The position numbers and the translations under genes are program-made. Shown here piece by piece: positions 4,411 to 55,409 of a stretch of 64,000 nt of DNA. Origin of the DNA: Candidatus Woesebacteria bacterium RIFCSPHIGHO2_02_FULL_42_20 (lineage in GTDB: Bacteria > Patescibacteriota > Microgenomatia > UBA8517); NCBI GenBank assembly GCA_001792535.1, contig MGGS01000008.1, positions 11,016 through 75,015 on the forward strand. The letters run 5' to 3'. The number at the start of each line of letters is the position of its first letter. Position 1 is the first letter of the stretch. A model generated the notes under the pieces. The model was not told where the DNA came from, did not search any database, and saw only the letters and a list, made by a program, of their open reading frames with translations.

Positions 4411-4438
4411 CTAATGTCGCATATGTATCTTAACTTGT

Positions 4439-5860: not shown

Positions 5861-5898
5861 GATTTGATCAAACTTTCAAAATTTCATAGGTACTACTT

Positions 5899-5990: not shown

Positions 5991-6026
5991 ACCCCGCCTT
6001 TATTCCTGAAAGACTCCTTTCCGCCC

Positions 6027-37054: not shown

Positions 37055-37060
37055 CGTTTT

Positions 37061-38398: not shown

Positions 38399-38400
38399 AA

Positions 38401-39309
38401 ATGGCAAAAATATTAATACTTACTTCAAAATTAACTGATACGAAGAAATCGTTTGTAAATTTGGTCAAGCAAAACTTTCAAGATGAACAAACTGAAATCT
38501 CGATCGAGGAAATCAGCACTATTTGTTTAAGCTTAAGTAAAAATGAAATCTCTTTTAAAGTATCGGGGGTTGATATTTGCAGATATGACTTAGTTTTTTT
38601 GAGGGGTATAACAAGCAGAAATATTTTTATTGCTACGACTGTAGCGATGGTGTTAGAAAAACTTGGTATAAAATATTTCGACACACTTTACAGTGAAGCG
38701 GGTCCGCATAGAAGTAAACTTGGTTCACTTGTCAAACTTGTTGGAAGTACAATTTGTATACCTAAAACGCTTTATTTTGCCGACAAAAATTATACAAAAC
38801 ACTATAGGGAAATTTCATGCGGGCTCGGTAGTCCGTTTGTTGCCAAAGAAATGTCTCTTCAAAAGGGAAAAGGGGTACATCGGATTTATTGTTTGAAAGA
38901 TCTAAGGACTTTACCGGCTCAAACGAAGAGGGGTAGTGAAAATGAATACTTTTTTCAGAAGTTCATAGAGAAGGACCATGAATACAGAATTTTGGTTTTA
39001 GGCAAAAAAATTGGAGTTTGGGAAGAGAAAATTTCCGCAAGTAAAGATGAATTTAGAAATAATATTGCCTTGGGTGCTAGAGAAATTTTTTTAAACGTTA
39101 AAGACATCCCTTCCAAATTGGAAACGCTAGCTATAAACGCAGCAGATTCTTTGGGAATTCAAGTTGCCGGAGTAGATGTGATAGTGGATGTCCACGGAAA
39201 GTATTTTGTATTGGAAGTAAACAGAGGTCCTGGATTAACGTACGACGAATCGGTTTCACCTGAATTTAAGGCAATAGCCGAATTTTTGGAAAAAGAATGT
39301 CGAAAATAG
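38401..39309 (+). CDS. RimK-family ATP-grasp ligase (paralog 2)
   Basis: ATP-grasp pattern: FVAKEMSLQKGKGVHRI, HEYRILVLGKKIGVWEEKIS...NIALGAREIFLN, GIQVAGVDVIVDVHGKYFVLEVNRGPGL. Confidence 0.6.
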   Translation: MAKILILTSKLTDTKKSFVNLVKQNFQDEQTEISIEEISTICLSLSKNEISFKVSGVDICRYDLVFLRGITSRNIFIATTVAMVLEKLGIKYFDTLYSEAGPHRSKLGSLVKLVGSTICIPKTLYFADKNYTKHYREISCGLGSPFVAKEMSLQKGKGVHRIYCLKDLRTLPAQTKRGSENEYFFQKFIEKDHEYRILVLGKKIGVWEEKISASKDEFRNNIALGAREIFLNVKDIPSKLETLAINAADSLGIQVAGVDVIVDVHGKYFVLEVNRGPGLTYDESVSPEFKAIAEFLEKECRK

Positions 39310-40232
39310 GAATTGCTTTTTCAAATAACACGGACACGGATCCTTTTATCCGGTTGGGCAAAAAAAGGTCTGTTTATGAAGATCTTATAATGAAATGTGT
39401 TGTAAAGAGCCTTAGTTGTGTTGTGGTTACAACAAGGACCTATAAAGGAAACGCACTTTTCAAAGGGTTTTGGGAATTTATAGGAGAAGGGCATTTGAAA
39501 TTCCGGGATAAGCTAATCAAATTAGACTTAGTTTATGACAGGTCGGCAAGCAAGTTTTTTCCCGCCAAATCTGATACGCTCCGGGTTGTGGACAATTACG
39601 ACTTCAAAAGATTGTCGTGCGACAAATGGCTGGTATACAAAGAAATAGGCGAGTATATGCCGAAAACTTATTGGATTGGTAGACAAATTAATCTCATGAA
39701 AGTATTGCCTGAAGTAAGAACCGATTTTATAGTTTTAAAACCTAATAACGGGTTGAAGGGTCTTGGAATATTTATCGGATCCAAAGTAGATTCGTTGAAA
39801 TTTGATTTTTTAGAAAAGAGACCTCTTTATATTGCTCAAGAATTTGTAGACACCAAGAAGGGTATTGAAGGGATTGTCAGCGGTTTTCATGATTTGCGGA
39901 TGGTTGTAATTAATCAAAAAATCGTCTGGTCCCATGTCCGGACCCCCTCTCAAGGAAATTTGAAAGCTAATGTAGCCCAAGGAGGCAGAATAATGGAAGT
40001 GGATACAGAAATCCTTCCGGAAAAGATTAAACAAGTTACTCAAAAAATTGCAAAAGAGCTGTATACGAGATATGATAACCCATTATTCAGCGTAGATTTC
40101 GGGGTGGACGCAAATGGTAAGGCCTTTGTTTTTGAAATTAACGACCAAGTCGGTTTCCCAAAGCCTGGTATGAGAGCTAAAGATTTATTTTTGGATGAAA
40201 TGATTGTGAATTTTAAATCTAAAATAAAATGA
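39297..40232 (+). CDS. ATP-grasp ligase (paralog 3)
   Basis: FIVLKPNNGLKGLGIFI, DLRMVVINQKIVWSHVRTPSQGNLKANVAQGGRIMEV, LFSVDFGVDANGKAFVFEINDQVGFP. Overlaps the previous gene by 13 nt. Confidence 0.6.
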   Translation: MSKIGIAFSNNTDTDPFIRLGKKRSVYEDLIMKCVVKSLSCVVVTTRTYKGNALFKGFWEFIGEGHLKFRDKLIKLDLVYDRSASKFFPAKSDTLRVVDNYDFKRLSCDKWLVYKEIGEYMPKTYWIGRQINLMKVLPEVRTDFIVLKPNNGLKGLGIFIGSKVDSLKFDFLEKRPLYIAQEFVDTKKGIEGIVSGFHDLRMVVINQKIVWSHVRTPSQGNLKANVAQGGRIMEVDTEILPEKIKQVTQKIAKELYTRYDNPLFSVDFGVDANGKAFVFEINDQVGFPKPGMRAKDLFLDEMIVNFKSKIK

Positions 40233-41125
40233 AAATCATTGATTTTATAGTATTTACAGGTGGTCCAAGAGCATATGCCCCAAACAGGCTCAGGAAAGAA
40301 GCTAAAAAAAATAACATAATTTTTCGTGCTTATCTTTATAAATATTTAAACATCAAACTAAATGGAGCTCCCCAAAACTATATTTTTTCGTATAAGGGCA
40401 GAGAACTTCCTCCAGCCAAGGGTGTCTTTTTGCGTGCCCTGGGGGAAATGGCGGAGTATAATCCTTATAAATATTTCCTAATAGATTGGTTCGAATCAAA
40501 AAGTGCAAAGGTGATTAATTCGGCATCTTTTAAAAAGTGGCCGTCGTTAGATAAAACATCACAACATTTGGTGTATTTAAAAAACGATATTCCTTTCATT
40601 AATTCAGCTGTCTTCGGCTCCCAGGAATCTGCCACTGCGTGGGCAAACCCAAGTAGGTTTCCGTTTATTGTTAAAAGTAATGTTGGAAGTTGCGGCACCG
40701 AAGTTTATAAAATAAAAAGCAGACGCGCCTTGAAAAGGCTACTAAAACCTTTCAATAAAAGGACAGTCAAGGGATTGCTTTTTCAGGAATTTTTGCCCGG
40801 TGGTGAAGACCTTAGAGTAATTGTATTAAATGGCAAGGTACTTGGTGCAATGAAAAGAATTGCGAGTAAAGGCAACTACCTGACTAACTATTCGCGGGGC
40901 GGAAGCGTTGAAAATTATGATTTAACAGGGGATGCTAGCGCTTCGAAAATTGCACTAAAAGTAACCGATACATTTTCTCTGGATTATTGTGGGGTGGATT
41001 TGATGAGGGGAAAAGACGGGGGCTGGAAAGTTTTGGAAGTTAATAGGGCTTGTCAGTTTGAAGGTTTTGAAAAAGCAACCGGAGTGAATGTGGCAAAGAA
41101 AGTTTTGGAATTTGCCGTCGGTTAA
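40229..41125 (+). CDS. RimK-family ATP-grasp ligase (paralog 4)
   Basis: FPFIVKSNVGSCGTEVYKI, DLRVIVLNGKVLGAMKRIASKGNYLTNYSRGGS, YCGVDLMRGKDGGWKVLEVNRACQFEGF. Overlaps the previous gene by 4 nt. Confidence 0.65.
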   Translation: MKIIDFIVFTGGPRAYAPNRLRKEAKKNNIIFRAYLYKYLNIKLNGAPQNYIFSYKGRELPPAKGVFLRALGEMAEYNPYKYFLIDWFESKSAKVINSASFKKWPSLDKTSQHLVYLKNDIPFINSAVFGSQESATAWANPSRFPFIVKSNVGSCGTEVYKIKSRRALKRLLKPFNKRTVKGLLFQEFLPGGEDLRVIVLNGKVLGAMKRIASKGNYLTNYSRGGSVENYDLTGDASASKIALKVTDTFSLDYCGVDLMRGKDGGWKVLEVNRACQFEGFEKATGVNVAKKVLEFAVG

Positions 41126-41643: not shown

Positions 41644-42102
41644 TTACTTCAGCTCGACTGTGGCACCTGCCGCTTTAAGCTTATCCGCAGCGGATTTCGC
41701 ATCCTCGGCCTTAGCGTCTTTCAAAATTTCTACCGGAACCTGTTCCGTCATGTCTTTAGCCTCTTTAAGACCCCAGTTCTGATTGACTTCCCGGAGTGCT
41801 TTAATAACCGCGATTTTATTGGCTCCTGCAGCTGTCATGACAACAGTCTGATTTGCACCCGCGGCGGACTCAGGTGCGCTAGGGGTTTCACCCGCTGCCG
41901 CGCCTTGCCCCGCTGGTGCCGCGACAGCGGCAACTTGTGGGGTCACTCCCAATTTATCCTGGAGAGCCTCGACTAATTCGGACAATTCCAAAACAGTAAG
42001 TTTGCTTACTTCGTCTACCAGTTTTTCGACTTTGCTTGATAGTTTTTTAGATCCTGCATGCGCAGGCATGTCTTTCTTTGGTTCGTCTGCCATAGATTTC
42101 AC
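41644..42102 (-). CDS. rplL: 50S ribosomal protein L7/L12 (with N-terminal extension and long Ala/Gly hinge)
   Basis: LTVLELSELVEALQDKLGV, and a C-terminal KIAVIKALREV...GLKEAKDM...AAGATVELK. Confidence 0.85.
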   Translation of the reverse strand: MKSMADEPKKDMPAHAGSKKLSSKVEKLVDEVSKLTVLELSELVEALQDKLGVTPQVAAVAAPAGQGAAAGETPSAPESAAGANQTVVMTAAGANKIAVIKALREVNQNWGLKEAKDMTEQVPVEILKDAKAEDAKSAADKLKAAGATVELK

Positions 42103-42638
42103 CCCCTTTTACCGGCTTCACTTAATACAAAAATTAGCTTTTGCATATTTGCATTTAACACACTTACTAATCCGTATTCTGGTGCCATCAAGTTTCCAAG
42201 CACCTGGCCTAATAAGACATCTTTTCCCGGAAGAGTTGAAATTTTAACCAAACTTTCGCTGTCTTGGAATTTTCCCTCAATCACTCCGACTTTAAACTTC
42301 GGAAGCGGTTCGCCGGTTACACTGACGGATTCCTTAGCGAATTTACCCAATATCTGGATAGGGGAGACCGGGTCGGTGCCCGACGTGATAACTGCTGTCT
42401 GGCCGGTCAAAACTGTGTCTGCTAAAGTCTCTTTTGGAAGTTTGGCATCCTCTGCAGCCAATTTAAACAAAGTATTTTTGACAACAAGCATTTTGGAGTT
42501 GCTTTCTTTAAACCTTTTTTTAAGGTCCTGCTGGGCCTTGACGGTCAGCCCCGAAAAGTCAACCAACACGACCGACTTAGCGTTTGCTAATTCATCGCTT
42601 AATTTCTTGACAAAAACCGGTTTGTCTTTCTTGTTCAT
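42099..42638 (-). CDS. rplJ: 50S ribosomal protein L10
   Basis: KSVVLVDFSGLTVKAQQDLKKRFKE... Start placed at MNKKDKPVF. Overlaps rplL by 4 nt. Confidence 0.85.
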   Translation of the reverse strand: MNKKDKPVFVKKLSDELANAKSVVLVDFSGLTVKAQQDLKKRFKESNSKMLVVKNTLFKLAAEDAKLPKETLADTVLTGQTAVITSGTDPVSPIQILGKFAKESVSVTGEPLPKFKVGVIEGKFQDSESLVKISTLPGKDVLLGQVLGNLMAPEYGLVSVLNANMQKLIFVLSEAGKRG

Positions 42639-42722
42639 AAAAAACCAAAAAACGCGCTTCGAGGCGCGTAAAAATATCTGCCTCGGCAAGACTTATTTTT
42701 ATGCTTGCTGTCTTAGGACAAA

Positions 42723-43217
42723 ATGAATTATATAGTCAAATTAATGTGTAATCAAGACATGAAATTAACCGGGGAACAGAGGCAAAAATTTGACCGTTTC
42801 GTTCGCAAAATCTATCCGTGTGTAATTGCGGTTTATCTGCATGGCTCTCGGGTTAAAGGATATTCTATTTCAACAAGCGATACGGATGTTGCCGTTGTGG
42901 TTGATAAAAAGCATGACATTCTAAGGAGAGAGCTCGAAATGATGTCTGAAGTGGGAAGTAATTTACCATTTTCCAATTCCGACGTGAGAGTCGTGGACGA
43001 AAGTAGCTCAAAAATTTTTTTGCGGAGTATAATCAAAGACTCCAGCGTTCTATATAAAAGAAGTGAGTTAGACAGGATTCGCTTTGAAGTTGGGGCTATG
43101 AGCAAGTTTTACGACCAAGGGTACATACGCGAGATTTATAAGTATTTTTTATATAAACAGATTAAGGAGGATAAATATGATCGTGGACAAAGTGACCTTA
43201 ACCAGGCTCTTGGATAA
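42723..43217 (+). CDS. MNT-type nucleotidyltransferase (antitoxin of HepT/MNT module)
   Basis: LHGSRVKGYSISTSDTDVAVVV is the GS...D.D NTase motif. Confidence 0.65.
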   Translation: MNYIVKLMCNQDMKLTGEQRQKFDRFVRKIYPCVIAVYLHGSRVKGYSISTSDTDVAVVVDKKHDILRRELEMMSEVGSNLPFSNSDVRVVDESSSKIFLRSIIKDSSVLYKRSELDRIRFEVGAMSKFYDQGYIREIYKYFLYKQIKEDKYDRGQSDLNQALG

Positions 43218-43602
43218 ACTTAAGCATAAACTGGCCAAGCTCGAGACAATGGAATTTGGCCTGGATGAAATTCGAGAGGACGAAGATATACAGGGTTTGG
43301 TAGATAGAAGGCTGCAGGTTGCTATTGAATCTTGTATTGATATGGTGACCATGGTTATCGCTGCGCTTTCGCTTAAGCGGCAAGACGAAGCTGCAGATGT
43401 TTTTCGCGAATTAGCACGTGCTAATATTATCTCAAAGAAACTAAGCGAAAAATTAGTAGACGCTTGTGGTTTGCGTAACGTTTTGGTTCATGAATGCGTC
43501 GACGTCGATTACAATGTTGTCTACAAGACTAAAAATGAGGATTTAGATAATTTGCGAGAGTTTGCAAAAGCGGTATCAAAGCTACTCGAAAAGGATAAAT
43601 GA
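43177..43602 (+). CDS. HepT-like (DUF86) toxin, RNase
   Basis: GLRNVLVHECVDVDYNVVY is the Rx4HxY motif. The 5' end overlaps the MNT gene. Confidence 0.75.
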   Translation: MIVDKVTLTRLLDKLKHKLAKLETMEFGLDEIREDEDIQGLVDRRLQVAIESCIDMVTMVIAALSLKRQDEAADVFRELARANIISKKLSEKLVDACGLRNVLVHECVDVDYNVVYKTKNEDLDNLREFAKAVSKLLEKDK

Positions 43603-43648
43603 AGGCTGGTCAGTTGCAAGGATGAAATATAAAGTATAGAATAACGAC

Positions 43649-44128
43649 ATGGTAGATATGGTTGGTGAAGCATTACCTCAGGTTGAGCAGGCACCCCGCG
43701 TTGGTTTGGCGGAAAGAGCTGTTGGATTGGGCGGACCAGTCGCGGACAGAGCTTCGAAGGTCTGGGATGCTGTTATAAAAGGTGGGAGAGCTGCATTAGA
43801 CGAATTAATTGAAGCACCTCTTAGAGCTAAAGTGGGGTTGTCAGTCGTGCTTGCTGAAACAACTAATCTTATTTTAGCTAAAGCCGCTTTTGCCGAAGGC
43901 CTAAGCGGACAGGTTTTAGAGCAAGCTAAAGATTTGGCTCAAATGCAGGACGCAGTGATATTGGCAGGTGCGTTGGTGGGCGGTTTGATAGGTGGTGGTA
44001 TTGGCTCGGTGGCAGGCAAAGGCAAGTCTGGTTTTGCATTAGGAGCCGTTGCAGGAGCGGGTTTAGCAGCTGCAGCACGCGATGGAATGCCGATTATTAT
44101 TGATACAGCTAAAAGGATGGGGGGATAA
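43649..44128 (+). CDS. Hypothetical Gly/Ala-rich (glycine-zipper-like) protein, GC-rich
   Basis: AGALVGGLIGGGIGSVAGKGKSGFALGAVAGAGLAAAA. The region 43.6-46.3 kb has higher GC than the flanks. Confidence 0.35.
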   Translation: MVDMVGEALPQVEQAPRVGLAERAVGLGGPVADRASKVWDAVIKGGRAALDELIEAPLRAKVGLSVVLAETTNLILAKAAFAEGLSGQVLEQAKDLAQMQDAVILAGALVGGLIGGGIGSVAGKGKSGFALGAVAGAGLAAAARDGMPIIIDTAKRMGG

Positions 44129-44133
44129 AGACT

Positions 44134-44442
44134 ATGAATAAAGTAGCCGATGTTGTTTCAAAATTTAGTTTCAAAAAGAAAGAGGCCGGTTATTCTCAAG
44201 AAGAAATAGATAAAACAATTTTTATTGCTGCCAACGTTACAATGGAGCGAGTAATCAATAGTTTGCAAGATCAAAAGAGCGGAATTACAGATAAGGTGAA
44301 AGACTTAGGTAAAAGCGTTTTGGGAGATCCTAAAAACGATGCAAAATGGCAGGAAGCGCAAGCTTTAGTTGTTAATGACAAAGGCGAAAGTCTTGAAACT
44401 GTAATTGCAGGCGAACTTGAGGATTTTTTGGGGAAGCTCTGA
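44134..44442 (+). CDS. Hypothetical protein
   Basis: 102-aa ORF lying 6 bp after the previous gene. Confidence 0.3.
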   Translation: MNKVADVVSKFSFKKKEAGYSQEEIDKTIFIAANVTMERVINSLQDQKSGITDKVKDLGKSVLGDPKNDAKWQEAQALVVNDKGESLETVIAGELEDFLGKL

Positions 44443-44445
44443 AGT

Positions 44446-45477
44446 TTACTTTCTAGTCAATCTTCCCACTATACTGGTTGGCTGAAGTCTTCGTTCAATA
44501 GTTTGCTTTGTTTCTAGTGGAATACCTAGCCTTTCTCGAACATCGGTTGGTAAGGGAACATCAAGCGTTCCAGCCGAAGGCTCCGTAGAAAACACAGTCC
44601 TTGATTGATACAGCTGACCTTCTTCTTTTGGGTCAATAACCGGCCTGAGTATAACTTGGCCATCCCATTTAGCCTTCTTGTCATTAGCATCACGCATGCT
44701 GACAGTTGTGGCCTCGTATACTTTCATATTGTCGGCGCCGTTTGGCCCTGTGCCGATTGCGACTACTGAACTAGCTTTGACATCATCTGTATTGAAAAAT
44801 ATTGGAACATCTCTACCGGTAAATTTACCTACCCCTTTAAATATTATTGGCGTGCCGTCTTTTGTTACAGCCTCCATGGTGAGGTTTTCTCTTCTGGCTT
44901 CTGGACTGATTACGTTTGCAGCACCTCTTGCTTCGGCATCTTCAGCGACTTGGCGTAAGCCAGGCGGCAGGGAAGCTTTTTGCGCTTCCCATTGGGCGTG
45001 AAGTTCAGCTTCTATTCTTTGTTGTTCAGTTCTGGCAGTCTTACCGGCCTGAAGTGAAGTGTTGACTGTTATTGCTCGACGAGCTGTGGCATGCCTTCTT
45101 GCGAAGTCTAGTACGCCTTTGTCGGTTGGTTCCACAGAAGCCCCAGCCGCAGCTTCCGTTCCGTAAGTTTGGATATTTTGGCTAAGGTTTTGTTCAAGCA
45201 TTTGTATTCGTTCTTCTTCTGTCACGTTTTGTGGAGTTCTCCAGCCCTTTACGTATTGAAGTCTTTGCGCCAGAGAACCACGTTCAGCCGCGGTTTTAGC
45301 TCGAAGAGCTGTTGGTGTTCCCTCATAAGCCATTCTCAATTTTGCGACGGGCTGCCTTAAAAAGACAATCTTTACAGGAGCTTCTACTAACGCCCCGCCG
45401 GGCTGTCTTATTTCTGTGGCAACCGGCACGGCAGCGTTGCCCCCTAGTTCCACTGGTGTTTCTCCGGGTCCGCTCAT
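44446..45477 (-). CDS. Hypothetical protein (343 aa), GC-rich
   Basis: Long ORF. Its start overlaps the upstream 180-aa ORF by 4 nt. Confidence 0.4.
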   Translation of the reverse strand: MSGPGETPVELGGNAAVPVATEIRQPGGALVEAPVKIVFLRQPVAKLRMAYEGTPTALRAKTAAERGSLAQRLQYVKGWRTPQNVTEEERIQMLEQNLSQNIQTYGTEAAAGASVEPTDKGVLDFARRHATARRAITVNTSLQAGKTARTEQQRIEAELHAQWEAQKASLPPGLRQVAEDAEARGAANVISPEARRENLTMEAVTKDGTPIIFKGVGKFTGRDVPIFFNTDDVKASSVVAIGTGPNGADNMKVYEATTVSMRDANDKKAKWDGQVILRPVIDPKEEGQLYQSRTVFSTEPSAGTLDVPLPTDVRERLGIPLETKQTIERRLQPTSIVGRLTRK

Positions 45478-46016
45478 TGTTCTATAGATACCAAATTGGG
45501 TACGCTAGTCAAATTCACTAAGTCTTCGGGAATACCTATGGCCACCAGCTCAATTTCTTTTTCATTGGGGTTCTCAGTTGGTTTTAAATCAAAAGAAAAA
45601 GCAAGTGCTTGGCCTTCGGTGTCCTTTAGTTGTTCGAATGCGGTGTTAAGCTTAAGCTCAAAAGCTTCAACTCCCTGTTTGTCTAGCGGACTAGTTAGCA
45701 TCTCCAAGCCGGTTTTGAGAACTAAAAGCGCGCTATCGTAGTCGTCAGTCGCAAAGAAATATTCTTTGGTCAGCTCACTAAAAACAGCCTGGGCACCAGC
45801 TTTTGTTTGGGTTGCCAAATTTGGCTCGTAAAGAAGGTCACTTAATGTTCGTGCGCGTTCAATCGGATCAAAATTTGGGTGGGGGTTCTCAATTTTTCCC
45901 TGAAGTTGTTTGACCCTTTTTACGACTCGGCCAACAAACGGCTCGGCTTCCTTTTGATTAGCGCTTTCTATTCGATATACCTCTATTCCAAAGCTTTTAC
46001 GCATTTCAGGTGTCAT
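45474..46016 (-). CDS. Hypothetical protein (180 aa)
   Basis: Forms a translationally coupled pair with the 343-aa ORF. Confidence 0.4.
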   Translation of the reverse strand: MTPEMRKSFGIEVYRIESANQKEAEPFVGRVVKRVKQLQGKIENPHPNFDPIERARTLSDLLYEPNLATQTKAGAQAVFSELTKEYFFATDDYDSALLVLKTGLEMLTSPLDKQGVEAFELKLNTAFEQLKDTEGQALAFSFDLKPTENPNEKEIELVAIGIPEDLVNLTSVPNLVSIEQ

Positions 46017-46439
46017 ACAAGTTGAAAACTATTATATACTATAAATCGTAGGTCTATCTAGGAGGTGATTATATGATACATGGTCCAGAGGAAATAGAAG
46101 TTTTGTCTCCACTCGATGAATTTTTAGAGTCGTTGAGCGAGGAAGATGCAGCGGATGTCAATGAAGCCGTTTTAGGAGCCAGAGGGCGCGGTGTATCGGA
46201 TAAGGAGATATTTGCTGCCCTGACTGGGGAAGTTGAAGCTGGTAGATCTCCCGTAGGCGAGCCGGAACCAACCGCTTAGTTTAATTTCTCAAGTACTATT
46301 TTGTAGTCCGCGCTTAATATGTGATAGTTTATATCAATTGTCTTTCCCACAATACAATAACTTCAAGAGTTTTTGGGCCTAAAGGCTCTTATTGTGTCGG
46401 CTTGGCTGGAGGATATTGGGCTGCCTGTTGCTCTTCGGT

Positions 46440-46690
46440 TGCGGTCCCGTATAATCGCTCATGTAGTTTTTTAGCAGAATTGAACTGCCAGTTGACGCGA
46501 GCTTAATAAGATTGCTGCATATAGCACGTCTTGGCCGTTTTTTCACCCGATTTGCGAATCAGGTCGACCTTGACGGAAGCGCGCTCGAGAGCATTAAACA
46601 CTTCATTCTTTTAGGTAGCTGTTTTGTAGTTGGCTCAGGCGCGCCCGAATTTTCAGTCATTGACGTATTTTAGCAGACTAAGTCTCTTGC
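46440..46690. repeat. Degenerate, internally deleted direct-repeat copy of the 5' region of gene 50779..51303 (partner at ~50950..51300)
   Basis: Shared blocks: gagcttaataagattgctgcatat(a/g)gcacgtcttggccgtttt; ttcacccgatttgcgaatcaggtcgaccttgacggaagcgcgctcgag; gttttgtagttggctcag; cattga(c/t)a(t/c)attttagca. All are in the same orientation. Confidence 0.8.
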
Positions 46691-46755
46691 AGAATTTTGG
46701 CACTTTCTACTTCAAGTAGTCTTGCAAAGTCAGTGAGTGAGTCATGATAAGACTC

Positions 46756-48276
46756 TTACTTTTTGTCAACTCTGCTAATCAAATCAGCCATAGATCGATC
46801 TTTGGCAGCCTTTAAGTATTCGATTTCTCTAGACCAAATATCTACACTGCAAACCGATACATCTTCATAACCAGATTCTTTAAGGATATTGCCAACTCTG
46901 TCTATTTGTTCATCACCATGAACAATTACTCTTCTAAGCGATCCATGAAGGGAAGTTGGTACGTATTTAACAACATTTTGTTGGTGTTTAAAAGTGGGCA
47001 TGTGTCTGTCGGCAATTTCTATGATCAGTGGGCGAGCTCGAATATTTTTTACTCTTTCCCCTGGGTTCATAGCATAAAGAACAAAATTATAAAGATCGTT
47101 TGGGTCGTCTTTGTGAAGACTTACAGATTGTAAATATGTACCTTTGGAGTAAGTGGCTTTTCTTGGTATAAGTCGGCCACTTTTTAATATTTTATCAAGT
47201 AGACCAAAAAAAGTAAGGTATCCTTCTTCAATTTCAGCGTGATCTAATTTTCTAAAAATTCCACCCCTACCAATATTATGCTGGTATCTTTTTAATCCAC
47301 CTTCAGCTTCTAGTAACTGCATTTGTAGGCTATCAGCGATTTGTTCATCGCCGTTTTCCCTCGCTAGTTCGACAGCGTGCTTAATAATATCCATATCTGA
47401 AGGTAAGATGGGTTCACCATCAGTAACTACCCCTTTTTGATAGCCTTGTTTCCTTAGCCTTAACACTGCAAGTTGAGTGGGTGTCATGTTGGCAATACTA
47501 TTAAGATCTGTATTTTCTAACCACTCTTGCTCTGATTTGTATTTCAAACATATTTCTGCAAGGTCTATTACGGATAAACCTCTTATGTCTGCTATCTGGC
47601 CTATCGAGTGTTGATTCTCAACTAAGCGTTCAGTTACACCGTCTTCTTCCAGTGCTGTGAAAACTCTGTTTAGCCTTTCTTTTGTTGTAGCAATTTGGTC
47701 CGGAGACATCTGTTGCGCCTGATCGTTGATCGTATCTATTCGTTTGGCTGTCTTAGTATCTATAAAATGCATGTTTATTTTTTGAGCGAACGCTCCACTT
47801 TCGTCATAGATATGGATACCAATATCTGGATGCCTTAAGTATCGGCTTAAGCCAAAAGCGTCTAATAAAGGGTTGGAATAATTTTGCTGTATTACTACAC
47901 CTTCAACTCGTGCAACTTGGCCTTCGGCGAGTACATCATTAGCAAAAAACGCCTCGATTCTATCTTGTGACTTTTCTGGCACAACTGCAATAAATGGGGC
48001 TATGCCTGCAATCCACTCTTCAATCTTTACTATGTTGCTTGGTGGGAGTTCTTGATTTTTATCAATTCTAGGTCTGTGGAATCTGGTGTAGATATTAGGA
48101 TTATTTGTAACAAAAACATGCTGCTCGTCATGAATGAAAGGTAAAAGCATTAACCTTTTAGTTTCAAGACCCAATCTCGAAAGGGCTTCATCTGCACCTA
48201 ACCTAGCTTCCTCTGGTATAATTTCAGCACTAACAGCATCCGTAAGTTCTGATACTTCTGTGTTTATCTCAACCAT
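46756..48276 (-). CDS. Hypothetical 506-aa protein, translationally coupled downstream of the HepT/MNT pair
   Basis: Long ORF with no recognisable motif. Its start overlaps the HepT stop by 8 nt. Confidence 0.5.
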   Translation of the reverse strand: MVEINTEVSELTDAVSAEIIPEEARLGADEALSRLGLETKRLMLLPFIHDEQHVFVTNNPNIYTRFHRPRIDKNQELPPSNIVKIEEWIAGIAPFIAVVPEKSQDRIEAFFANDVLAEGQVARVEGVVIQQNYSNPLLDAFGLSRYLRHPDIGIHIYDESGAFAQKINMHFIDTKTAKRIDTINDQAQQMSPDQIATTKERLNRVFTALEEDGVTERLVENQHSIGQIADIRGLSVIDLAEICLKYKSEQEWLENTDLNSIANMTPTQLAVLRLRKQGYQKGVVTDGEPILPSDMDIIKHAVELARENGDEQIADSLQMQLLEAEGGLKRYQHNIGRGGIFRKLDHAEIEEGYLTFFGLLDKILKSGRLIPRKATYSKGTYLQSVSLHKDDPNDLYNFVLYAMNPGERVKNIRARPLIIEIADRHMPTFKHQQNVVKYVPTSLHGSLRRVIVHGDEQIDRVGNILKESGYEDVSVCSVDIWSREIEYLKAAKDRSMADLISRVDKK

Positions 48277-48706
48277 GGCAACTAGTATATATTTTCTTAA
48301 GCACAGACTTTAGATACTTGGGGACTTGGGTTAAGGCCATTTCGATTGATTCATAAATTTTCTTGGGATCAATTTCATCATATTCGTGCGCGAGTGCGTT
48401 ACGTAGGCCACCAGATTTTGCCAGTTCATTTGCGAGTTTTTCTGATACTATTCCTCGCTTTCCAAGCTCAGTAAACGATTGTGTGTAGTTGTTAGGTACA
48501 AACCCACATCGCTCGCTTAAGAGGTGATAATTAATATCAATCATTTTTCCCACAATTCGCTCCAGAAGTCTTTCAATAATAAGTTGTGATGTGGCGCTTT
48601 TTAAGTACTGTTTGTAGCTCTTCGGCTGATTTTTTGCCAAAATGGCCAGGTCGACTTCGATTAGCTTTGCTTTTCTAGTAATGATTTGGATATCAACCGG
48701 CGACAT
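48269..48706 (-). CDS. HepT-like (DUF86) toxin
   Basis: GGLRNALAHEYDEIDPKKIY is the Rx4HxY motif. Confidence 0.8.
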   Translation of the reverse strand: MSPVDIQIITRKAKLIEVDLAILAKNQPKSYKQYLKSATSQLIIERLLERIVGKMIDINYHLLSERCGFVPNNYTQSFTELGKRGIVSEKLANELAKSGGLRNALAHEYDEIDPKKIYESIEMALTQVPKYLKSVLKKIYTSCHG

Positions 48707-49094
48707 ATTTATTCAGATTTGTGAGAGTTACTTTTTTCTCCATTTCGAGATAGGGTAGATAATTGTTATATTTCTTGAATGCAGTCAGTTTTAAACTTGT
48801 GTAAATTTTCCCGCTTCCTGAGATAAGTTTGCTTTCAGTGGTAACTGTGAACAACAACAAGGGGTCAGCGTTGGCTAAGTTCGTAATATCCAGTTTGTCT
48901 GCCGGTTTAATGACCTTTCCCAGATCCGTATATAAGTTAAGCAGATCAAAACTGACGCCCGGCTTTGGTAATACTGCAATGTCTATATCACTGGCTGAGT
49001 GGGTTTTGCCACTAACTTGGGATCCATGCAGAAGTATAAGCACGAGATTATACTTTTTGCGGATTTTATCAATAGCCGACTTGTTTAACTTCAC
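48693..49094 (-). CDS. MNT-type nucleotidyltransferase antitoxin
   Basis: LLHGSQVSGKTHSASDIDIAVL. Overlaps the HepT gene by 14 nt. Confidence 0.75.
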   Translation of the reverse strand: MKLNKSAIDKIRKKYNLVLILLHGSQVSGKTHSASDIDIAVLPKPGVSFDLLNLYTDLGKVIKPADKLDITNLANADPLLLFTVTTESKLISGSGKIYTSLKLTAFKKYNNYLPYLEMEKKVTLTNLNKYVAG

Positions 49095-49326
49095 ACTCCG
49101 ATTATAGCATTTTTGTTTACTGGACAGAGTCAGGATTTTGCCTGTGAGGGGGTGATTAATATGCCAGGAGAATCAGGAGCAGATTTCCCAGGGACAGGTG
49201 TGAGTGTTGATCGGCATGGTGGACAGGGTAAACTCTGAGCATCATCCGTTATTGGCAACTATATTCTTTGGCGGGTGTTGACAAAACTTGCCGTTTCGAT
49301 TACTGTAGAAATGAGGTAGTATTTCT

Positions 49327-49917
49327 ATGAAGAAAATCGAAATGGTGTGGCGGGAGTTGCTTTATTGGAGTATTGAAAAAGGCGAGCGCGTTTTTGTCCA
49401 AAAGGATTTGGCGGCTAAGTTTAATTTTTCCACAAGCACCATTTTTCAAGCTTTAAAGCCGACACGGGCTATGGGTGCAGCACGGGTAACCGGTAGAAAC
49501 TTTACGCTTGAAGATCCTGAAAAGCTTCTTTATTATTGGGCAAGTGTTCGCAACCTCGCCAATGACACAATTTTTGAGGGTCGGGTGGATTTACCTCTAC
49601 TGGAGATTGAAGGCATGATGCCTGCTTTAAGTATCTTTGCCGGCTATAGTACTGCTCGGTTCATATTAAAAGAAGCTCCGGCTGATTACGATAAAGTTTT
49701 TGTCTACGCAAAGAGCAAGGAAGATCTTGCTTCACGATTTGATTTTGTTGAAGGTAAACCCAATTTGTATATCCTTAAGTCTGATCCTTTTATCAGCAGT
49801 TATGGAGGTAAAACTACATTAGCCCAGACATTTGTTGATATCTGGAATTTAAATGATTGGTATGCCAAAGAATTTACACAAGCATTGAAAGACAGAATCG
49901 ATGACCTATTACACTGA
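49327..49917 (+). CDS. Winged-HTH protein, putative AbiEi-like antitoxin/regulator
   Basis: N-terminal wHTH-like segment ELLYWSIEKGERVFVQKDLAAKFNFSTSTIFQALK followed by an unknown C-terminal domain. Confidence 0.4.
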   Translation: MKKIEMVWRELLYWSIEKGERVFVQKDLAAKFNFSTSTIFQALKPTRAMGAARVTGRNFTLEDPEKLLYYWASVRNLANDTIFEGRVDLPLLEIEGMMPALSIFAGYSTARFILKEAPADYDKVFVYAKSKEDLASRFDFVEGKPNLYILKSDPFISSYGGKTTLAQTFVDIWNLNDWYAKEFTQALKDRIDDLLH

Positions 49918-50512
49918 TATTATCACCGGCAAAAGTTGGGAACTACTAAAAAAGCTTAAAAAAAGCTATGAGTTTATCCTGATTGGAGGCTGGGCAGTTT
50001 ATCTTTACACCCGGGTATTAAAATCAAAAGATATTGATGTTGTGGTCGAGTATGAGCAATTGGAAAGGTTAAAGCAGGAGTTTGAGCTAAGTAAAAATGA
50101 ACGGCTGAAAAAATATGAAGCAAGAGTGGAGGAATTGCAAATTGACATATACCTTCCTTTTTACTCCAATCCTGGTATCCCTGCTGAAAAGATTGAAGAA
50201 TATACAGTATTGGTAGAAGGTTTTCGTCTGCCGGCTGTTGAATTACTTGCAATATTAAAGCAAAAAGCCTTTGTAGAGCGGGTAAGGAGTACTAAAGGCA
50301 GGAAAGATTTGGTAGATTTGGTTTCGTTATTCAGATTGCCCGGATTTAAGTGGTCCAAATATAAAGCGATGGTGGAAAAATACCAACTAACCGAGCAAGC
50401 TCAAAAAGTTTCTGGGCTAATTGATGAAACCAAAGAAATAAATGAACTTGATTTAAATGTCCATAAATTTTTAAGGATAAAAAAACAATTCGGGTTTTTT
50501 AAAGTGGACTGA
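49901..50512 (+). CDS. Nucleotidyltransferase-fold protein, putative AbiEii-like toxin
   Basis: ILIGGWAVYLYTRVLKSKDIDVVVE (GG...DID NTase motif). Overlaps the upstream wHTH gene by 17 nt. Confidence 0.4.
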   Translation: MTYYTDIITGKSWELLKKLKKSYEFILIGGWAVYLYTRVLKSKDIDVVVEYEQLERLKQEFELSKNERLKKYEARVEELQIDIYLPFYSNPGIPAEKIEEYTVLVEGFRLPAVELLAILKQKAFVERVRSTKGRKDLVDLVSLFRLPGFKWSKYKAMVEKYQLTEQAQKVSGLIDETKEINELDLNVHKFLRIKKQFGFFKVD

Positions 50513-50778
50513 AAGTGAGTTACTGACCTGAATTATTTGTGCCCCACTTGGTTTAAGGTTTCTCCGAGAACTTTATTAGATATTTGTATCTACTTTCGTC
50601 AACGTCCTTCGAGGCTACGGCGAGTTCATCAGGCACACCGTTTGGAAATCCGGAGTCGACTGCCAAAAAACTGAAGTGGTGTAACCCTGTTTTTTGGCCG
50701 GGTATCGGATTCCAGTTATCAATAACCCCTATTTCCCCATAGGGTAAAGGATTATCGGTTGGTATGACAATGATACCC

Positions 50779-51303
50779 TCAGTCCTTGATGTTTTCCGGC
50801 TCGGTTAGACCTGAAATAAAATCAGAAAATGGCTCTCCCGTATTGTAAGGCTCAGCTGGCAGTCCTATCTGTTCCGGTTTCAAAGATCTGGTTACCCTGT
50901 TTCCACCTGAGTCGGTAAGCGAAAGGTTGAACTGTTCACCAAGTGTAAGCATTTGTTTTAGAACAGCCAGTTGATGCGAGCTTAATAAGATTGCTGCATA
51001 TGGCACGTCTTGGCCGTTTTCGGTTACTGTCGCGGTCCCGCTTTGTAGTTTTTCGACCTCTTTTTCACCCGATTTGCGAATCAGGTCGACCTTGACGGAA
51101 GCGCGCTCGAGTGCAGCAAATACTTCATTTAGTGGATTTGACTCTGTGGTTGGGGTTGGTTCGTCTTGCGACCTTAAGCCATAAAAACCCTCTTTTAGGT
51201 AGATGTTTTGTAGTTGGCTCAGATGCGGCCGAGTTTTCTGCCATTGATACATTTTAGCAAAGATCCTTATTCCTTTATCAAGGGAGAATGAGATTGTTAC
51301 CAA
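50779..51303 (-). CDS. Hypothetical protein (174 aa); its 5' third is the source of the repeat copy at 46.4-46.7 kb
   Basis: ORF with no recognisable motif. Overlaps the upstream 454-aa gene by 7 nt. Confidence 0.4.
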   Translation of the reverse strand: MVTISFSLDKGIRIFAKMYQWQKTRPHLSQLQNIYLKEGFYGLRSQDEPTPTTESNPLNEVFAALERASVKVDLIRKSGEKEVEKLQSGTATVTENGQDVPYAAILLSSHQLAVLKQMLTLGEQFNLSLTDSGGNRVTRSLKPEQIGLPAEPYNTGEPFSDFISGLTEPENIKD

Positions 51304-52661
51304 CTGACTCCGCCTTCTTTATCATAATCCTTTCTGGTCAACCCTGAATTTATTGTCAAATATGAAGGAAGCTCTCTGGCAAGAGAGACAGCTTCTTTAA
51401 TTGCTTTCTTATTCCAGCCACAATCTTTCAAAATTGTTCTGATGTTTTCGATTATAATATTAAAAAGATTCGGGCCGGCCAAAGCCCGCACAAACGCTTG
51501 CCCAAAATAATTTTCCGCATATTTTTGTCCTTGTAACCACCTAACCAATTTTGCCCAATCTTCCGGAAGTTCCGGTCTTTTGATTAAATTTTCCAGAGGC
51601 TCATTTGCCCGCGCCCACTCATAGATAATCGGTTTTAGTATTCTTAATTCTTTAAGTTGTTCTGTTATCGATAAACCTCGATCCGCTGGAGCTGAGTAAA
51701 CTACACGTACTTGATCAGTCAACCTTATATCTTTTCCCATTAAACCACTTGTAACAATGTCGAAACTGACATCTTCGACTTGGAGGCCGCCATCCATAAT
51801 TGCGGTTTGAGCTGCCAACGCGTCTCGGCCAGCTGATAATGTGCCGCCTCCTGGGGACCACTTTGCTCCGGGCGAGTAGGTGTGTAAATTGGCAGTAGCC
51901 CTAACTAAACCCGCAATCTTTTTGTCTGGCAAAATATATCCATTTTCATCCATCACAACCGGTTCCAGTTTTGCTCCGACTGCAAAACACCCGGTTGCTT
52001 CGGCAATTTCCATCATTCGCAACAGTCCGTTACCTGTAAAGTTATCACCTTGTTTACCGGTGTATAACCTATTGTCAGCGCCAGGAGTCAGATAATATTT
52101 GTGTACGGTGTTTTCTCGTTTAGCAGAATCAACAAAGGCTTGGAAACCAGTTCTGAGGGCATTGGCAGTTCCAGAGTTAACGTCAACGTCTTCTTGATGA
52201 ATAAAGAAGAAATTAATAGTGCTCTTTCTAAGTTCAGCTAGATTTGCTTCTTGTGTGTATTGTGAATCCGTGTATAGTCTTCCACCCTTTTCGTAGAGAT
52301 TAACAGTAGTTGCAGCTTCAACTTGAAAGTCGTTTGCAAACTGTTGATCAGCTTCGTCACCGCCACGGTTAAGAACAATTGCGATATCTGCTCCGTCAAT
52401 TTTTTCTTTATCAACACACTCTTTAATTTGGCGGTTAAGTATGGGCAATCCTGTCTGAAGAAGGTGAGAAGCTCTCCTCGCCGGGATAATAACTGCAAGT
52501 CTGTTATTATCGGCATCGGGTAGTGTCTCTTTGTACTTTCGGATGTTATCTAACAGCCCAAGTGCTTTTTCACTCGGGAGCGGATGTTCTTTCTGGGAAT
52601 AGTCTCGAACAGGCGTTATATCAAGTCTAGGCGGTATTGTTTGAGGCTCGAAATCTGTCAT
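51297..52661 (-). CDS. Hypothetical 454-aa protein
   Basis: Long ORF. AVIIPARRAS near the N-terminus is vaguely glycosyltransferase-like, but this is not verified. Confidence 0.4.
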   Translation of the reverse strand: MTDFEPQTIPPRLDITPVRDYSQKEHPLPSEKALGLLDNIRKYKETLPDADNNRLAVIIPARRASHLLQTGLPILNRQIKECVDKEKIDGADIAIVLNRGGDEADQQFANDFQVEAATTVNLYEKGGRLYTDSQYTQEANLAELRKSTINFFFIHQEDVDVNSGTANALRTGFQAFVDSAKRENTVHKYYLTPGADNRLYTGKQGDNFTGNGLLRMMEIAEATGCFAVGAKLEPVVMDENGYILPDKKIAGLVRATANLHTYSPGAKWSPGGGTLSAGRDALAAQTAIMDGGLQVEDVSFDIVTSGLMGKDIRLTDQVRVVYSAPADRGLSITEQLKELRILKPIIYEWARANEPLENLIKRPELPEDWAKLVRWLQGQKYAENYFGQAFVRALAGPNLFNIIIENIRTILKDCGWNKKAIKEAVSLARELPSYLTINSGLTRKDYDKEGGVSW

Positions 52662-52667
52662 TAACTA

Positions 52668-54176
52668 ATGATATCAAAGATTGACAAGGAAACACTTGTA
52701 GTACTACTATTAATATGTAATACAGTGAAACAGACCAAGATACTATTCTTCTTTTTATTAGCTTTTCTTTTTGTTTTTGCTGTTCCCGTTTTTGCCCAAC
52801 TGCCGCCAGACAGCCAAGGCCGTGCCGTAAATGATGTTGTAACTGAGTCGATAATACCCCCGTATCCATATCCAACATCCGTACCTTCCGGTAATCCGAT
52901 TTTCGGTCAGGATCACTCCTACTCTGTCGTCATGCGGGGTAACGGGGAAGCGGTTGTGACCTTGAAAGTTACCTTCAGCAACGTAACGACCTCGAGCATG
53001 AATAAGGTTTACCTGCGCGTGCCTAAGGTTGAGCCAAGGGAAGTCATGGTCTATCAGATTTATAAACCTGAATTTTGCCTTCGATATCTCCCAAATGTTT
53101 TGACACCCGAGCTTCCGGTAGACTATTACTACAACTACTACAACAACCTTAACTGTGAACAGTGGAGTAGTCCTGACTATTTCGGCGGTTACCTTGGGGA
53201 CGCTACTTTTTACAAAGCCAGAACCGATTATAGCGGTGACACATTAACAGTTTATCTGCCCAAGTCCGTGCGGCCCGATGGGTCCGGTTCGTTTTTTGTC
53301 TATTATCGGGCTTTTGGCTATGCGAAGAAAAACATCGTCGGGGCCTACAATTACACGTTTGAAACTCTTAAGGCTAATGAGTCGATTCGAAGCATGACTG
53401 TCGGGATAAGCGTGGACTCGGACCTTTTCCTTAAAGACGCCAAGGGCGGAGTCAACTACAGATTTGAAGAGGCAAGTCTCGCGCCTTTGTCCGACGCGGC
53501 ATACGGAGTGGAGCTAAGGAACCCAAAGGTGACAAGTTTTGTGAGTCAGATAGGGAGTGGTACGGTGACAAAGACAGCCTCAAATCTGGCCGCCCTGGAG
53601 TCTTATTCGGTCAAAGGCGTATATGCCGACAGACAAATTAAGCTCTATGGCAAGGAAATCTTGTGGGGGTTGCTGGTAGTGGTGCTATTTCTGGCTGGTT
53701 TTGTTTTCTTTGTCCGCGCAGTTTACAGGAGATTGCAATTACGGAGAGCCAATGTTGAGGCGGCTGCACAAGCGGCGAAACCGAGTGCTAAAGCGGGTGT
53801 CGGTAAAGCCGGTATGTTGACGGGCCAGGATTATGTCAAAACGGGGTTGGTTGTGGCAGTCGTTACCTTTTTCTCACCGCTACTTATGATGGCTTATACT
53901 TTTGCTCTGGTTCTCCTGACTACCTCGAGTAATTTCATTTACTTTGGCAGCAATTATTTGGGGCCGATACTTTTTATAATCATTTTGATTTTGTCGATAG
54001 CCGTCTACGGGGTGTTGCTCTTTTTCCCGGCTTTATATGTCGGGCTAAAGCGTGGGCTTCATTGGGCATTGGCGACTTTTTTGATGACTGTTTTCTGGAC
54101 AGCTTTTTGTGTTCTGATAATAGTAGTCATGATATCGGTCTTCAATTATAATCCTCGTGGACCATATCTTTATTAG
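52668..54176 (+). CDS. Surface/membrane protein: N-terminal signal-anchor, ~330-aa extracellular domain, C-terminal 5-6 TM helices
   Basis: Hydrophobic N-terminus (ILFFFLLAFLFVFAVPVFA), a Tyr/Asn-rich ectodomain and a long C-terminal hydrophobic block. Confidence 0.45.
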   Translation: MISKIDKETLVVLLLICNTVKQTKILFFFLLAFLFVFAVPVFAQLPPDSQGRAVNDVVTESIIPPYPYPTSVPSGNPIFGQDHSYSVVMRGNGEAVVTLKVTFSNVTTSSMNKVYLRVPKVEPREVMVYQIYKPEFCLRYLPNVLTPELPVDYYYNYYNNLNCEQWSSPDYFGGYLGDATFYKARTDYSGDTLTVYLPKSVRPDGSGSFFVYYRAFGYAKKNIVGAYNYTFETLKANESIRSMTVGISVDSDLFLKDAKGGVNYRFEEASLAPLSDAAYGVELRNPKVTSFVSQIGSGTVTKTASNLAALESYSVKGVYADRQIKLYGKEILWGLLVVVLFLAGFVFFVRAVYRRLQLRRANVEAAAQAAKPSAKAGVGKAGMLTGQDYVKTGLVVAVVTFFSPLLMMAYTFALVLLTTSSNFIYFGSNYLGPILFIIILILSIAVYGVLLFFPALYVGLKRGLHWALATFLMTVFWTAFCVLIIVVMISVFNYNPRGPYLY

Positions 54177-54991
54177 GAAAGAGCAAGTTTGACCGAAGGG
54201 CTCATTGTCGAGCAAATGTAAGCTTTTATTATTTGTTTGCTAGTTAGCGTTTCCAGGATCGCGGTAATGTTTTCGTCCAGTTCTTTCTTCTGCATGGAAA
54301 GTTTCCCAACAGTTGTGTGGATGATGGGCGCTGATTTTTCAGTTTTTAAAGTAATTGAGTTGGCTGAAAATTTGCTGATTTCTTTTTCGTTTTTGATTAG
54401 CGTCCCGTTTTTGGGATTTGGCATCAAACCCCTTGGACCCAAAAGTTTTGCAAACGGGACCAATTTTGGCATCATGTCGCCCGTTGCTAAAAGTACATCA
54501 AAATCTATCCTTCCGTCTTTAAGTTTTTTTATTGTTTCGTCCCCGGCAACCTCAACCCTTTTTACTTTGCCGGTAGAGTGGGGCAGTGTGATGTTTGCGC
54601 TTAAGTTATCCTTCCGCACAACTAGGTGAAGTTCGACAGTTGAATCAAATTTAGAATAGGAAATTTCTTTTAAAAGAGCGACCGCGTCATCTAATTTATA
54701 AAGTCTGGCAGGATCCACTTTAGATTTGGAGTCCTTGTATTTTTTGCTTCTGACTTTTAGCCTTGTTTTACGTTTTTTGGCTTCCTCGTTTCCCGAAGTT
54801 TGCTCGGAGTGGAGTTCGCTTTCTGGCGGCAAGTCGGACTGTACGGCAACTACCCGTTGTCCGCCTTTAAGGCCCGGAATGTGTACTTTGGTGGCTTTCT
54901 CTTCTTTTGCTTTTTTTCGTTTTTCATAAAGCTCTTTGCCGGAAAGTTTTTCCTCAACGCCGGCAACAAAAGCTGTCTTAGTTTTACCCAT
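54173..54991 (-). CDS. rplA: 50S ribosomal protein L1 with ~80-aa Lys-rich N-terminal extension
   Basis: The core matches L1 (KYKDSKSKVDPARLYKLDDAVALLKE..., GDMMPKLVPFAKLLGPRGLMPNPKNGT). The frame stays open for ~80 codons upstream and overlaps the rplK stop by 8 nt. Confidence 0.8.
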   Translation of the reverse strand: MGKTKTAFVAGVEEKLSGKELYEKRKKAKEEKATKVHIPGLKGGQRVVAVQSDLPPESELHSEQTSGNEEAKKRKTRLKVRSKKYKDSKSKVDPARLYKLDDAVALLKEISYSKFDSTVELHLVVRKDNLSANITLPHSTGKVKRVEVAGDETIKKLKDGRIDFDVLLATGDMMPKLVPFAKLLGPRGLMPNPKNGTLIKNEKEISKFSANSITLKTEKSAPIIHTTVGKLSMQKKELDENITAILETLTSKQIIKAYICSTMSPSVKLALS

Positions 54992-55409
54992 TGATTTTTA
55001 CTCCCATCGACCTGGCAGTCCCGATAACAATTTTGAGTGCGGCTTCCACGTTGTCGGTGTTAAGATCGCGCATTTTTTCTTTAGCGATTTCTTCCGCCTG
55101 GGAAACGGAAAGAGTTCCCGCAATATCCCGGTTCGGTACTCCGGAACCTTTTTGAATACCCAGCTTCTTTTTGATCATATCGGCGACCGGGGCAAGCTTT
55201 ATCTCAAAATCGAAGCTTCTGTCTTCGTAAATAGTTATGACAGCAGGGACTGTGTTCCCTTTCATGTCCTTTGTCTTGTCGTTATAGGCCTTGACAAAAT
55301 CCATGATTGCCACGCCGTGCTGACCCAAGGCAGGTCCCAGAGGCTGCGCCGGAGTGGCTTCGCCCGCAGGAAGGTTAATTTTAAGAACTGTTTTAACTTT
55401 TTTTGCCAT
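54984..55409 (-). CDS. rplK: 50S ribosomal protein L11
   Basis: MAKKVKTVLKINLPAGEATPAQPLGPALGQHGVAIMDFVKAYN. Confidence 0.9.
   Translation of the reverse strand: MAKKVKTVLKINLPAGEATPAQPLGPALGQHGVAIMDFVKAYNDKTKDMKGNTVPAVITIYEDRSFDFEIKLAPVADMIKKKLGIQKGSGVPNRDIAGTLSVSQAEEIAKEKMRDLNTDNVEAALKIVIGTARSMGVKING

Follow-up and report, generated by a model that had tools for sequence, protein, structure and literature searches.

The 64-kb window analysed here (64,000 nucleotides of contig MGGS01000008.1 from Candidatus Woesebacteria bacterium RIFCSPHIGHO2_02_FULL_42_20, a member of the Candidate Phyla Radiation, CPR) contains a cassette of toxin-antitoxin (TA) and defence-type genes that lies between two unequal copies of the 5′ part of a gene, p174. 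Judged from the sequence, the segment at 46311-46675 is probably the eroded remnant of a second p174-AbiE-like pair-MntA-HepT-p506 segment that arose by segmental duplication. It is homologous to the intact unit and matches it in order and orientation, its frames are broken, its junction is sharp and no recombinase genes accompany it, from which we infer that a whole unit was duplicated and subsequently eroded. A scar of this sort is of a known kind, the duplication-derived pseudogene relic, and is unsurprising to a specialist. The relevant positions, in nucleotides (nt) and base pairs (bp), are as follows.

46482-46675, minus strand: copy A of the direct repeat, 194 bp, a non-coding pseudogene fragment (psi-p174) corresponding to p174 codons 16-38, 59-81 and 95-114.
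50961-51259, minus strand: copy B of the direct repeat, 299 bp, the intact 5′ coding part of p174 (codons 16-114).
50779-51303, minus strand: p174, 174 amino acids from a TTG, or 157 amino acids from the ATG at 51252, which is the start in several annotations.
46539-46589, equal to 51061-51111: identical tract of 51 nt, the crossover interval of hybrid contigs L029-L032 and L113.
46497-46522, equal to 50976-51001: identical tract of 26 nt, the crossover interval of contig L027.
46676-46755: spacer of 80 nt between copy A and the p506 stop codon.
46311-46353, minus strand: HepT relic (psi-HepT), with 36 of 43 nt identical to HepT1 at 48514-48556 (codons 51-64, IVGKMIDINYHLLS).

The direct repeat was seen by three methods, repeat detection, blastn of 46001-46800 against the 64-kb window and MAFFT alignment, all of which agreed on three collinear blocks on the same strand: 46482-46541 against 50961-51020 (57/60 identical), 46542-46607 against 51064-51129 (62/66) and 46608-46675 against 51192-51259 (58/68). 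Over the whole repeat the copies share 177 of 194 positions (91.2%; blastn E values of 1.3e-27 and 2.7e-17 against the window), with longest perfect tracts of 51, 26, 19 and 18 nt, and they differ at 17 sites and by two indels. Exactly two segments present in copy B are missing from copy A, one of 43 bp (51021-51063) and one of 62 bp (51130-51191), and the junctions of these deletions carry TTTT and T microhomology, respectively. The initial annotation, made from the sequence alone, had described degenerate direct repeats in the same order and orientation; these were recovered, together with all three of the strings it quoted, and with 177/194 identity in sequence that is not low-complexity the similarity is neither confined to less than 30 bp nor a matter of composition. 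Its size of about 250 bp for each copy has to be corrected to 194 and 299 bp, and the several deletions that it saw in the first copy come down to two.

The two copies differ in coding state, as had also been claimed: copy B occupies codons 16-114 in the coding 5′ region of p174, while the corresponding frames of copy A are broken. In copy A the ATG has become ATA, a TGA follows four codons later, and the 62- and 43-bp deletions introduce two frame shifts. The features looked for in a relic, same-strand nucleotide homology to a nearby intact gene (177/194) and a frame destroyed in the copy while the parent gene p174 is intact, are thus both present; codon usage in p174 itself is coding-like and comparable to that of HepT1. 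In the MAFFT alignment the similarity breaks off sharply at 46675/46676 and at 51259/51260, and we read the break at 46675/46676 as the duplication junction. The 5′ edge of copy B lies 7 nt upstream of the alternative p174 ATG at 51252, and the abrupt end of the similarity here means that the p174 ribosome-binding site was never part of copy A.

A 43-nt segment that starts 129 nt past copy A, on the same strand, is a second relic and matches HepT1 (blastn E = 5.5e-7; Smith-Waterman score of 51, compared with shuffle maxima of 31 and 35); the other HepT genes of the window gave no match to it. On the minus strand the intact unit runs p174, AbiE-like pair (on the opposite strand), MntA, HepT, p506, and the relic keeps this order and orientation, with psi-p174 followed by psi-HepT. 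The scar is therefore best read as a decayed copy of the unit itself and not merely as a duplicated target: a HepT relic in unit order is expected of the former and not of the latter. Two genes of the unit have left traces in it, which, the HepT relic being short, lends the reading moderate support. Further relics were sought in the 128-nt gap between psi-p174 and psi-HepT and in the 80-nt spacer, and none scored above shuffled sequence apart from a marginal one at 46441-46478. This segment (TCTGCTAAAAAACTACATGAGCG...) bears a weak resemblance to the beginning of copy A (TCTGCTAAAATACGTCAATGACTG...), with a score reached by 2 of 500 shuffles, and may be a second, still more decayed restart of the p174 5′ end. 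A weak similarity to HepT1 at 48608-48628 was also seen within the gap, at 46421-46441 (17/21), and the 8-mer TGCTAAAA, common to the repeat starts, was not enriched in the window.

A sequence of events that would produce this arrangement begins with a segmental duplication in which another copy of the unit comes to lie immediately behind p506, the junction being at 46675/46676. The mechanism would be unequal exchange giving a tandem duplication; re-insertion of a circularised copy by homologous recombination would give the same topology. The redundant unit, carrying a second toxin gene, would have lacked its own promoter and ribosome-binding site. One large deletion of about 2.3 kb would then have removed the sequence from p174 codon ~114 to HepT codon ~50, and another of about 1.8 kb the sequence from HepT codon ~65 to the unit end; the two small deletions of 43 and 62 bp, with TTTT and T at their junctions, and the loss of the start codon would have left the remainder without coding function. 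Deletional decay of HepT/MntA modules appears to be recurrent in this genome, and we count this in favour of an eroded duplicate. At 34006-34404 (minus strand), what was a third type VII TA module is now a single open reading frame (ORF), an MntA::HepT fusion that joins an N-terminal part of MntA (Polbeta, residues 12-68) to HepT (residues 54-132) and has a stop in the catalytic motif (RNLLIH*), which on its sequence represents further TA decay by internal deletion.

The genes between and next to the two copies are listed below, together with the island in which they lie.

46756-48276, minus strand: p506, 506 amino acids, a rare uncharacterised family, the start overlapping the HepT1 stop by 8 nt.
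48269-48706, minus strand: HepT1, type VII toxin (RNase); NF047751 at 99.1 bits (cut-off 60), Rx4H motif RNALAH.
48693-49094, minus strand: MntA1, adenylyltransferase antitoxin; NF047752 at 61.5 bits (cut-off 60), GSx10DxD motif (GSQVSGKTHSASDID).
49327-49917, plus strand: helix-turn-helix (HTH)-like protein of 196 amino acids, weak HTH match, 17-nt overlap with the next gene.
49901-50512, plus strand: DUF6036 nucleotidyltransferase of 203 amino acids; best family match DUF6036, with AbiEii (PF08843) at 16.6 bits, below its cut-off of 22.5.
51297-52661, minus strand: p454, the gene upstream of p174.
42723-54172: lineage-specific island of ~11.4 kb between the rplJ leader and the rplA stop codon, including the repeat and the cassette.

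HepT1 and MntA1 overlap by 14 nt and both score above the Pfam and NCBIfam cut-offs, indicating a bona fide type VII TA pair as far as sequence can identify one. The 506-aa gene and the HepT/MNT pair lie between the copies as originally annotated, and the "AbiE-like" label for the remaining pair needs qualification: with a weak HTH match in the first protein, a DUF6036 assignment and a sub-threshold AbiEii score in the second, and no AbiEi domain match and no PADLOC match for the pair, "AbiE-like" would be only a loose description of an HTH-like/DUF6036 pair. By sequence, p174 is an ORFan, since a word-indexed search of 5.8 billion proteins returned only p174 itself, and no match was obtained in PDB, Pfam, NCBIfam, PHROGs or PADLOC.

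Strain variants and an empty site were sought by exact-protein look-ups of p174, p454, p180 and p68. Sixteen contigs from many samples and assemblers were 99.97-100% identical to the window over the covered parts of 42000-55000, and among the longest p68-bearing contigs all returned loci had the standard gene order. The two-copy arrangement is fixed in the population, and no ancestral empty site was found in the public data searched. Six short contigs were A/B hybrids, and both reciprocal junctions were represented among them. Four of these (L029-L032, 1.0-1.6 kb, from four assemblies) contain the p506 3′ end and the 5′ part of copy A, cross over in the 51-nt tract and continue into copy B, the p174 C-terminal region and the DUF6036 gene, a junction whose sequence is of the circle or tandem-array type. 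The 902-bp contig L113, which together with L029-L032 represents five assemblies, contains p454 and copy B, crosses in the same tract and continues into copy A, the relic and p68, and so reads as a deletion-type junction. A deletion-type junction was also present in L027 (6.1 kb), with the crossing in the 26-nt tract; its left part is identical to copy B, and its right part differs at a single position from the sequence that lies downstream of copy A. The cassette-less contigs L027 and L113 were considered as the ancestral empty site and rejected, as they are exact hybrids of B on the left and A on the right with differing crossovers, and copy A is 9% diverged. Thus the search for an empty site or excised form suggested in the initial annotation turned up no ancestral empty site, and the junction-type contigs that it did yield are A/B hybrids, derived or chimeric.

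The hybrid contigs could be either recent homologous recombinants or low-coverage de Bruijn-graph chimeras; the k-mer coverage of L031 is 1.05. A 30-mer of the repeat in a metagenome scan and a 42-mer of the repeat in an IMG/VR scan each gave 0 matches. It is plausible from their sequence that the perfect tracts of 51 and 26 nt make the arms substrates for RecA-type recombination, by which the cassette would be deleted or amplified. A stronger proposal, that the arms are live, with the cassette looping out as a circle or amplifying across the 51- and 26-nt tracts without a recombinase of its own, and that the phage contig L027 shares the p174 5′ module and the downstream relic, appears to us improbable. 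Another candidate, P0018 (SRR3990170; 51120-51176), was considered as a third context for the p174 5′ module and rejected as a fold-back chimera, its tail being the reverse complement of the p174 5′ region.

Contig L027 (positions 1-6114; Joint Genome Institute (JGI) 3300009285, Ga0103680_10012314) carries phage packaging genes, namely HNH, portal-like, TerL and TerS-like genes. Its TerL has a closest IMG/VR relative of 45% identity. After 336 nt it is 100% identical to 51335->50976, which covers the tail of p454 and the 5′ part of p174, and beyond that to 46497->46190, which covers the relic and p68. The conserved C-terminal tail of p454 recurs in a small ORF, MTRKDYIIIAEVLKNFKQYDKEGGVSW. In the phage part the G+C content is 42.2%, near the host value. 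L027 could be a prophage-host junction, a phage with captured host DNA or a chimeric contig.

Several observations weigh against a duplicated and eroded unit. The divergence between copies A and B is uneven, with 9 mismatches in 37 positions beside the start codon and 8 in 157 elsewhere (Fisher p = 0.001), and the HepT relic has 7 in 43. A single duplication followed by neutral decay predicts uniform divergence, which copy A does not display, and the unevenness therefore implies either a later gene conversion of the centre or a relic that predates the intact unit or is foreign to it. In addition, the HepT relic is just 43 nt long, the 128 nt between the relics (46354-46481) gave no significant match to the unit in shuffle tests, and no relatives of p174 or p506 with retrievable genomic context were found, leaving no outgroup locus by which the event could be dated or oriented. 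Uneven divergence would be accommodated by an additive integration, in which a diverged homologous cassette integrated just upstream of an older resident p174-like and HepT locus at 46.3-46.7 kb, the resident then decaying; we regard this as possible though rather unlikely. Another strain or element might have been the source of the cassette, with homology-facilitated or Campbell-type recombination as its means of entry and the relic as the old allele, and we consider that route similarly doubtful. The repeat centre diverges by 5%, and the start-codon end and the HepT relic by 16-24%, a pattern that fits a mosaic in which a converted or recombined patch is combined with older homology; the G+C content of the cassette (0.395) is slightly below that of the island (0.424) and the window (0.427); and homologues of p454 occur elsewhere without a p174-like neighbour, indicating that the neighbourhood was rearranged. 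Against an additive integration, neither a donor nor a second allele of p174 or p506 was found among 5.8 billion proteins outside this population, no strain showed the arrangement presumed to be ancestral, and the same later deletions would be needed in addition to an import event. The cassette may have been imported from outside or duplicated in place.

The site-specific insertion that had been offered as an alternative origin in the initial annotation was not supported, with no recombinase, no short core and no tRNA or gene 3′ end at the repeat, and what stands of that account is the decayed partial paralog and the footprint of duplication or recombination. It is accordingly very unlikely that a mobile cassette was inserted site-specifically with the copies as its attL/attR-like ends, even though direct repeats bracket a 4.3-kb block of defence and TA-type genes and cassette-less and circle-type junction contigs exist. 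No integrase, transposase or other recombinase was found in or beside the cassette (among island and cassette proteins searched with Pfam, PHROGs, NCBIfam and PADLOC), the arms of 194 and 299 bp are 91% identical coding sequence from the start codon with indels and have no short identical core, the HepT relic is left unexplained, and the crossovers vary between the 51-nt and the 26-nt tract, as in homology-dependent exchange or assembly chimeras with no fixed core. The features of a transposon or insertion sequence were likewise lacking, as there is no transposase, an inverted-repeat search found no terminal inverted repeats at the cassette ends, and the repeat is hundreds of bp long and not a target duplication of 2-14 bp. 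Located on the p506 strand, 80 nt past the p506 stop codon, copy A is probably co-transcribed with p506 and is 100% conserved in all population contigs, which might suggest a functional non-coding element (a 3′ untranslated region, small RNA or decoy) that regulates p506 or p174. The conservation is uninformative because the whole covered region is also 99.97-100% identical, and with a direct repeat, the transcripts of which are not complementary, no Rfam match at copy A, promoter and terminator scans at or near background, and frameshifts, a lost start codon and deletions in the pattern of neutral decay, there is very little chance of such a function. Finally, contigs break in or near the repeat (L013 starts at 46568, L028 at 51006) and short hybrid contigs exist, as might be expected if the repeat or the two-copy arrangement were an assembly artefact; this is the least credible explanation, since the same arrangement is present at 100% identity in many independent samples and several assemblers, on contigs of up to 88-107 kb, and 17 differing sites and two indels mark the copies as distinct loci.

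Of the systems already described, the scar is most readily compared with pseudogenes eroded after segmental duplication. Work by Mira, Ochman and Moran in 2001 is said to provide an example of pseudogene remnants eroded by deletional bias in bacterial genomes. Such pseudogenes share with 46311-46675 a same-strand, collinear, partial copy of neighbouring genes without a recombinase, a lost start codon, frameshifts and internal deletions with microhomology, but the relic here is unevenly diverged, about 240 of an expected ~4580 nt are left, and the duplicated gene is an ORFan, so that the event is not datable against relatives. In Campbell-type (single-crossover) integration of circular DNA, a gene-internal homology is also duplicated on both sides of an insert, and recombination between the arms gives a circle and an empty site, both junction types of which appear in the short contigs here. 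Differences from that case are the lack of a known circular donor, the heavy decay of one arm and the HepT relic beyond the arm, which such an integration does not require. The attL/attR ends of an integrase-borne island or prophage resemble the present repeat in that direct repeats flank accessory TA and defence-type genes in a larger island, and differ from it in that here there is no integrase, the arms are long, degenerate and coding, no tRNA or gene 3′ end is involved and the crossovers vary.

The cassette genes can be compared in the same way. HepT1/MntA1 resembles the type VII HepT/MntA system in scoring above the NCBIfam equivalog cut-offs, in its Rx4H and GSx10DxD motifs and in its 14-nt overlap, and departs from it in the third coupled gene, p506, which is outside the described two-gene system; the repeat is no TA component. 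The HTH-like/DUF6036 pair shares with AbiE (AbiEi/AbiEii), a type IV TA and abortive infection system, the arrangement of a small HTH-like gene followed by an overlapping nucleotidyltransferase, and is unlike it in its AbiEii score (16.6 against 22.5 bits), in having no AbiEi or PADLOC match and in its best family, DUF6036.

The repeat alone is a routine genome scar, which would record the duplication or re-insertion of a TA and defence block and the piecemeal loss of the spare copy through deletions. Its presence points to a dynamic island interrupting the normally contiguous rplKA-rplJL cluster of a CPR bacterium, and it draws attention to an uncharacterised 506-aa family coupled to HepT/MntA. 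It also calls for caution, since the 51-nt identical tract yields hybrid contigs in metagenome assemblies. If the hybrid junctions were true at the read level, they would document homology-driven loss or amplification of a defence cassette in an uncultured lineage, and if the arms were live and L027 a true contig, this would provide an integrase-free route by which a CPR host and its phage exchange, lose and capture a defence cassette.

The island contains two HepT/MntA pairs (the second at 42723-43602), the DUF6036 pair and about eight ORFans, and splits the usual rplK-rplA-rplJ-rplL cluster. Candidatus Woesebacteria genomes that carry the locus, among them GCA_001793165.1 and ACD_52C00032, come from the Rifle aquifer. 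The nearest relative found was L017 (from a genome-collection scan with L1; L1 58% identical), in which rplJ directly follows rplA at a distance of 163 nt and the whole island is absent, with flanking synteny kept (to one side RNase HII, nusG, rplK and rplA; to the other rplJ, rplL, RimK-type ATP-grasp genes and a seven-transmembrane (7TM) transglutaminase-like gene) and with the rplJ leader sequence conserved between the two genomes. Paralogy within the island was limited to the MntA1/MntA2 and HepT1/HepT2 pairs, at 27-48% identity. Beyond the island, downstream of rplJL, a 7TM transglutaminase-like gene and four RimK/ATP-grasp ligase genes occupy 36146-41125, a cluster that is conserved in L017.

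MntA, HepT and p506 look like one operon on the sequence, with p506 translationally coupled, because its start overlaps the HepT1 stop. The p506 protein had no sequence match in Pfam, NCBIfam, PADLOC, PHROGs or PDB, and only 12 relatives, 27-45% identical, among 1.84 billion representative proteins; a word-indexed protein search returned only p506 itself and one partial fusion (P0003), a metagenome collection scan with the family gave 0 matches, and IMG/VR relative searches with p506, p343 and the p506 alignment also gave 0. An AlphaFold model built with an 8-sequence alignment reached a predicted local distance difference test score (pLDDT) of 81.4 and a predicted template modelling score (pTM) of 0.83, compared with an unusable pLDDT of 37 from the single sequence. 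Foldseek found no significant fold match for the model: the best PDB hit was TUT7 (E = 0.019), BFVD returned nothing, and the weak matches included Tpt1 (probability 0.91, target-normalised TM-score 0.49) and DarT (target-normalised TM-score 0.37-0.42). Residues invariant in the 8-sequence alignment include H333, N334, R337, T375, G379, Y381 and K430; E407 is invariant in a 4-sequence subset only. The fusion P0003 (SRR3989304; ~48084-48481) is an in-frame HepT1(1-75)::p506(65-) protein, the p506 part of which is 96% identical, joined at the microhomology CCTAAcAaCTACAC / CCTAAtAtCTACAC. It may come from a diverged strain without the catalytic half of HepT; the source is read-level, and a chimera is also possible.

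The neighbouring p454 belongs to a small family that is conserved to its final Trp. Its homologues in other genomes are 41-45% identical and occur in unrelated contexts, and the ribosomal protein cluster was present in none of the homologue loci L023-L026. Three of these four fetched loci (L023-L025) adjoin copper-related HMA/DsbD_2/cupredoxin genes and PAP2 genes, and the neighbourhood of L026 differs.

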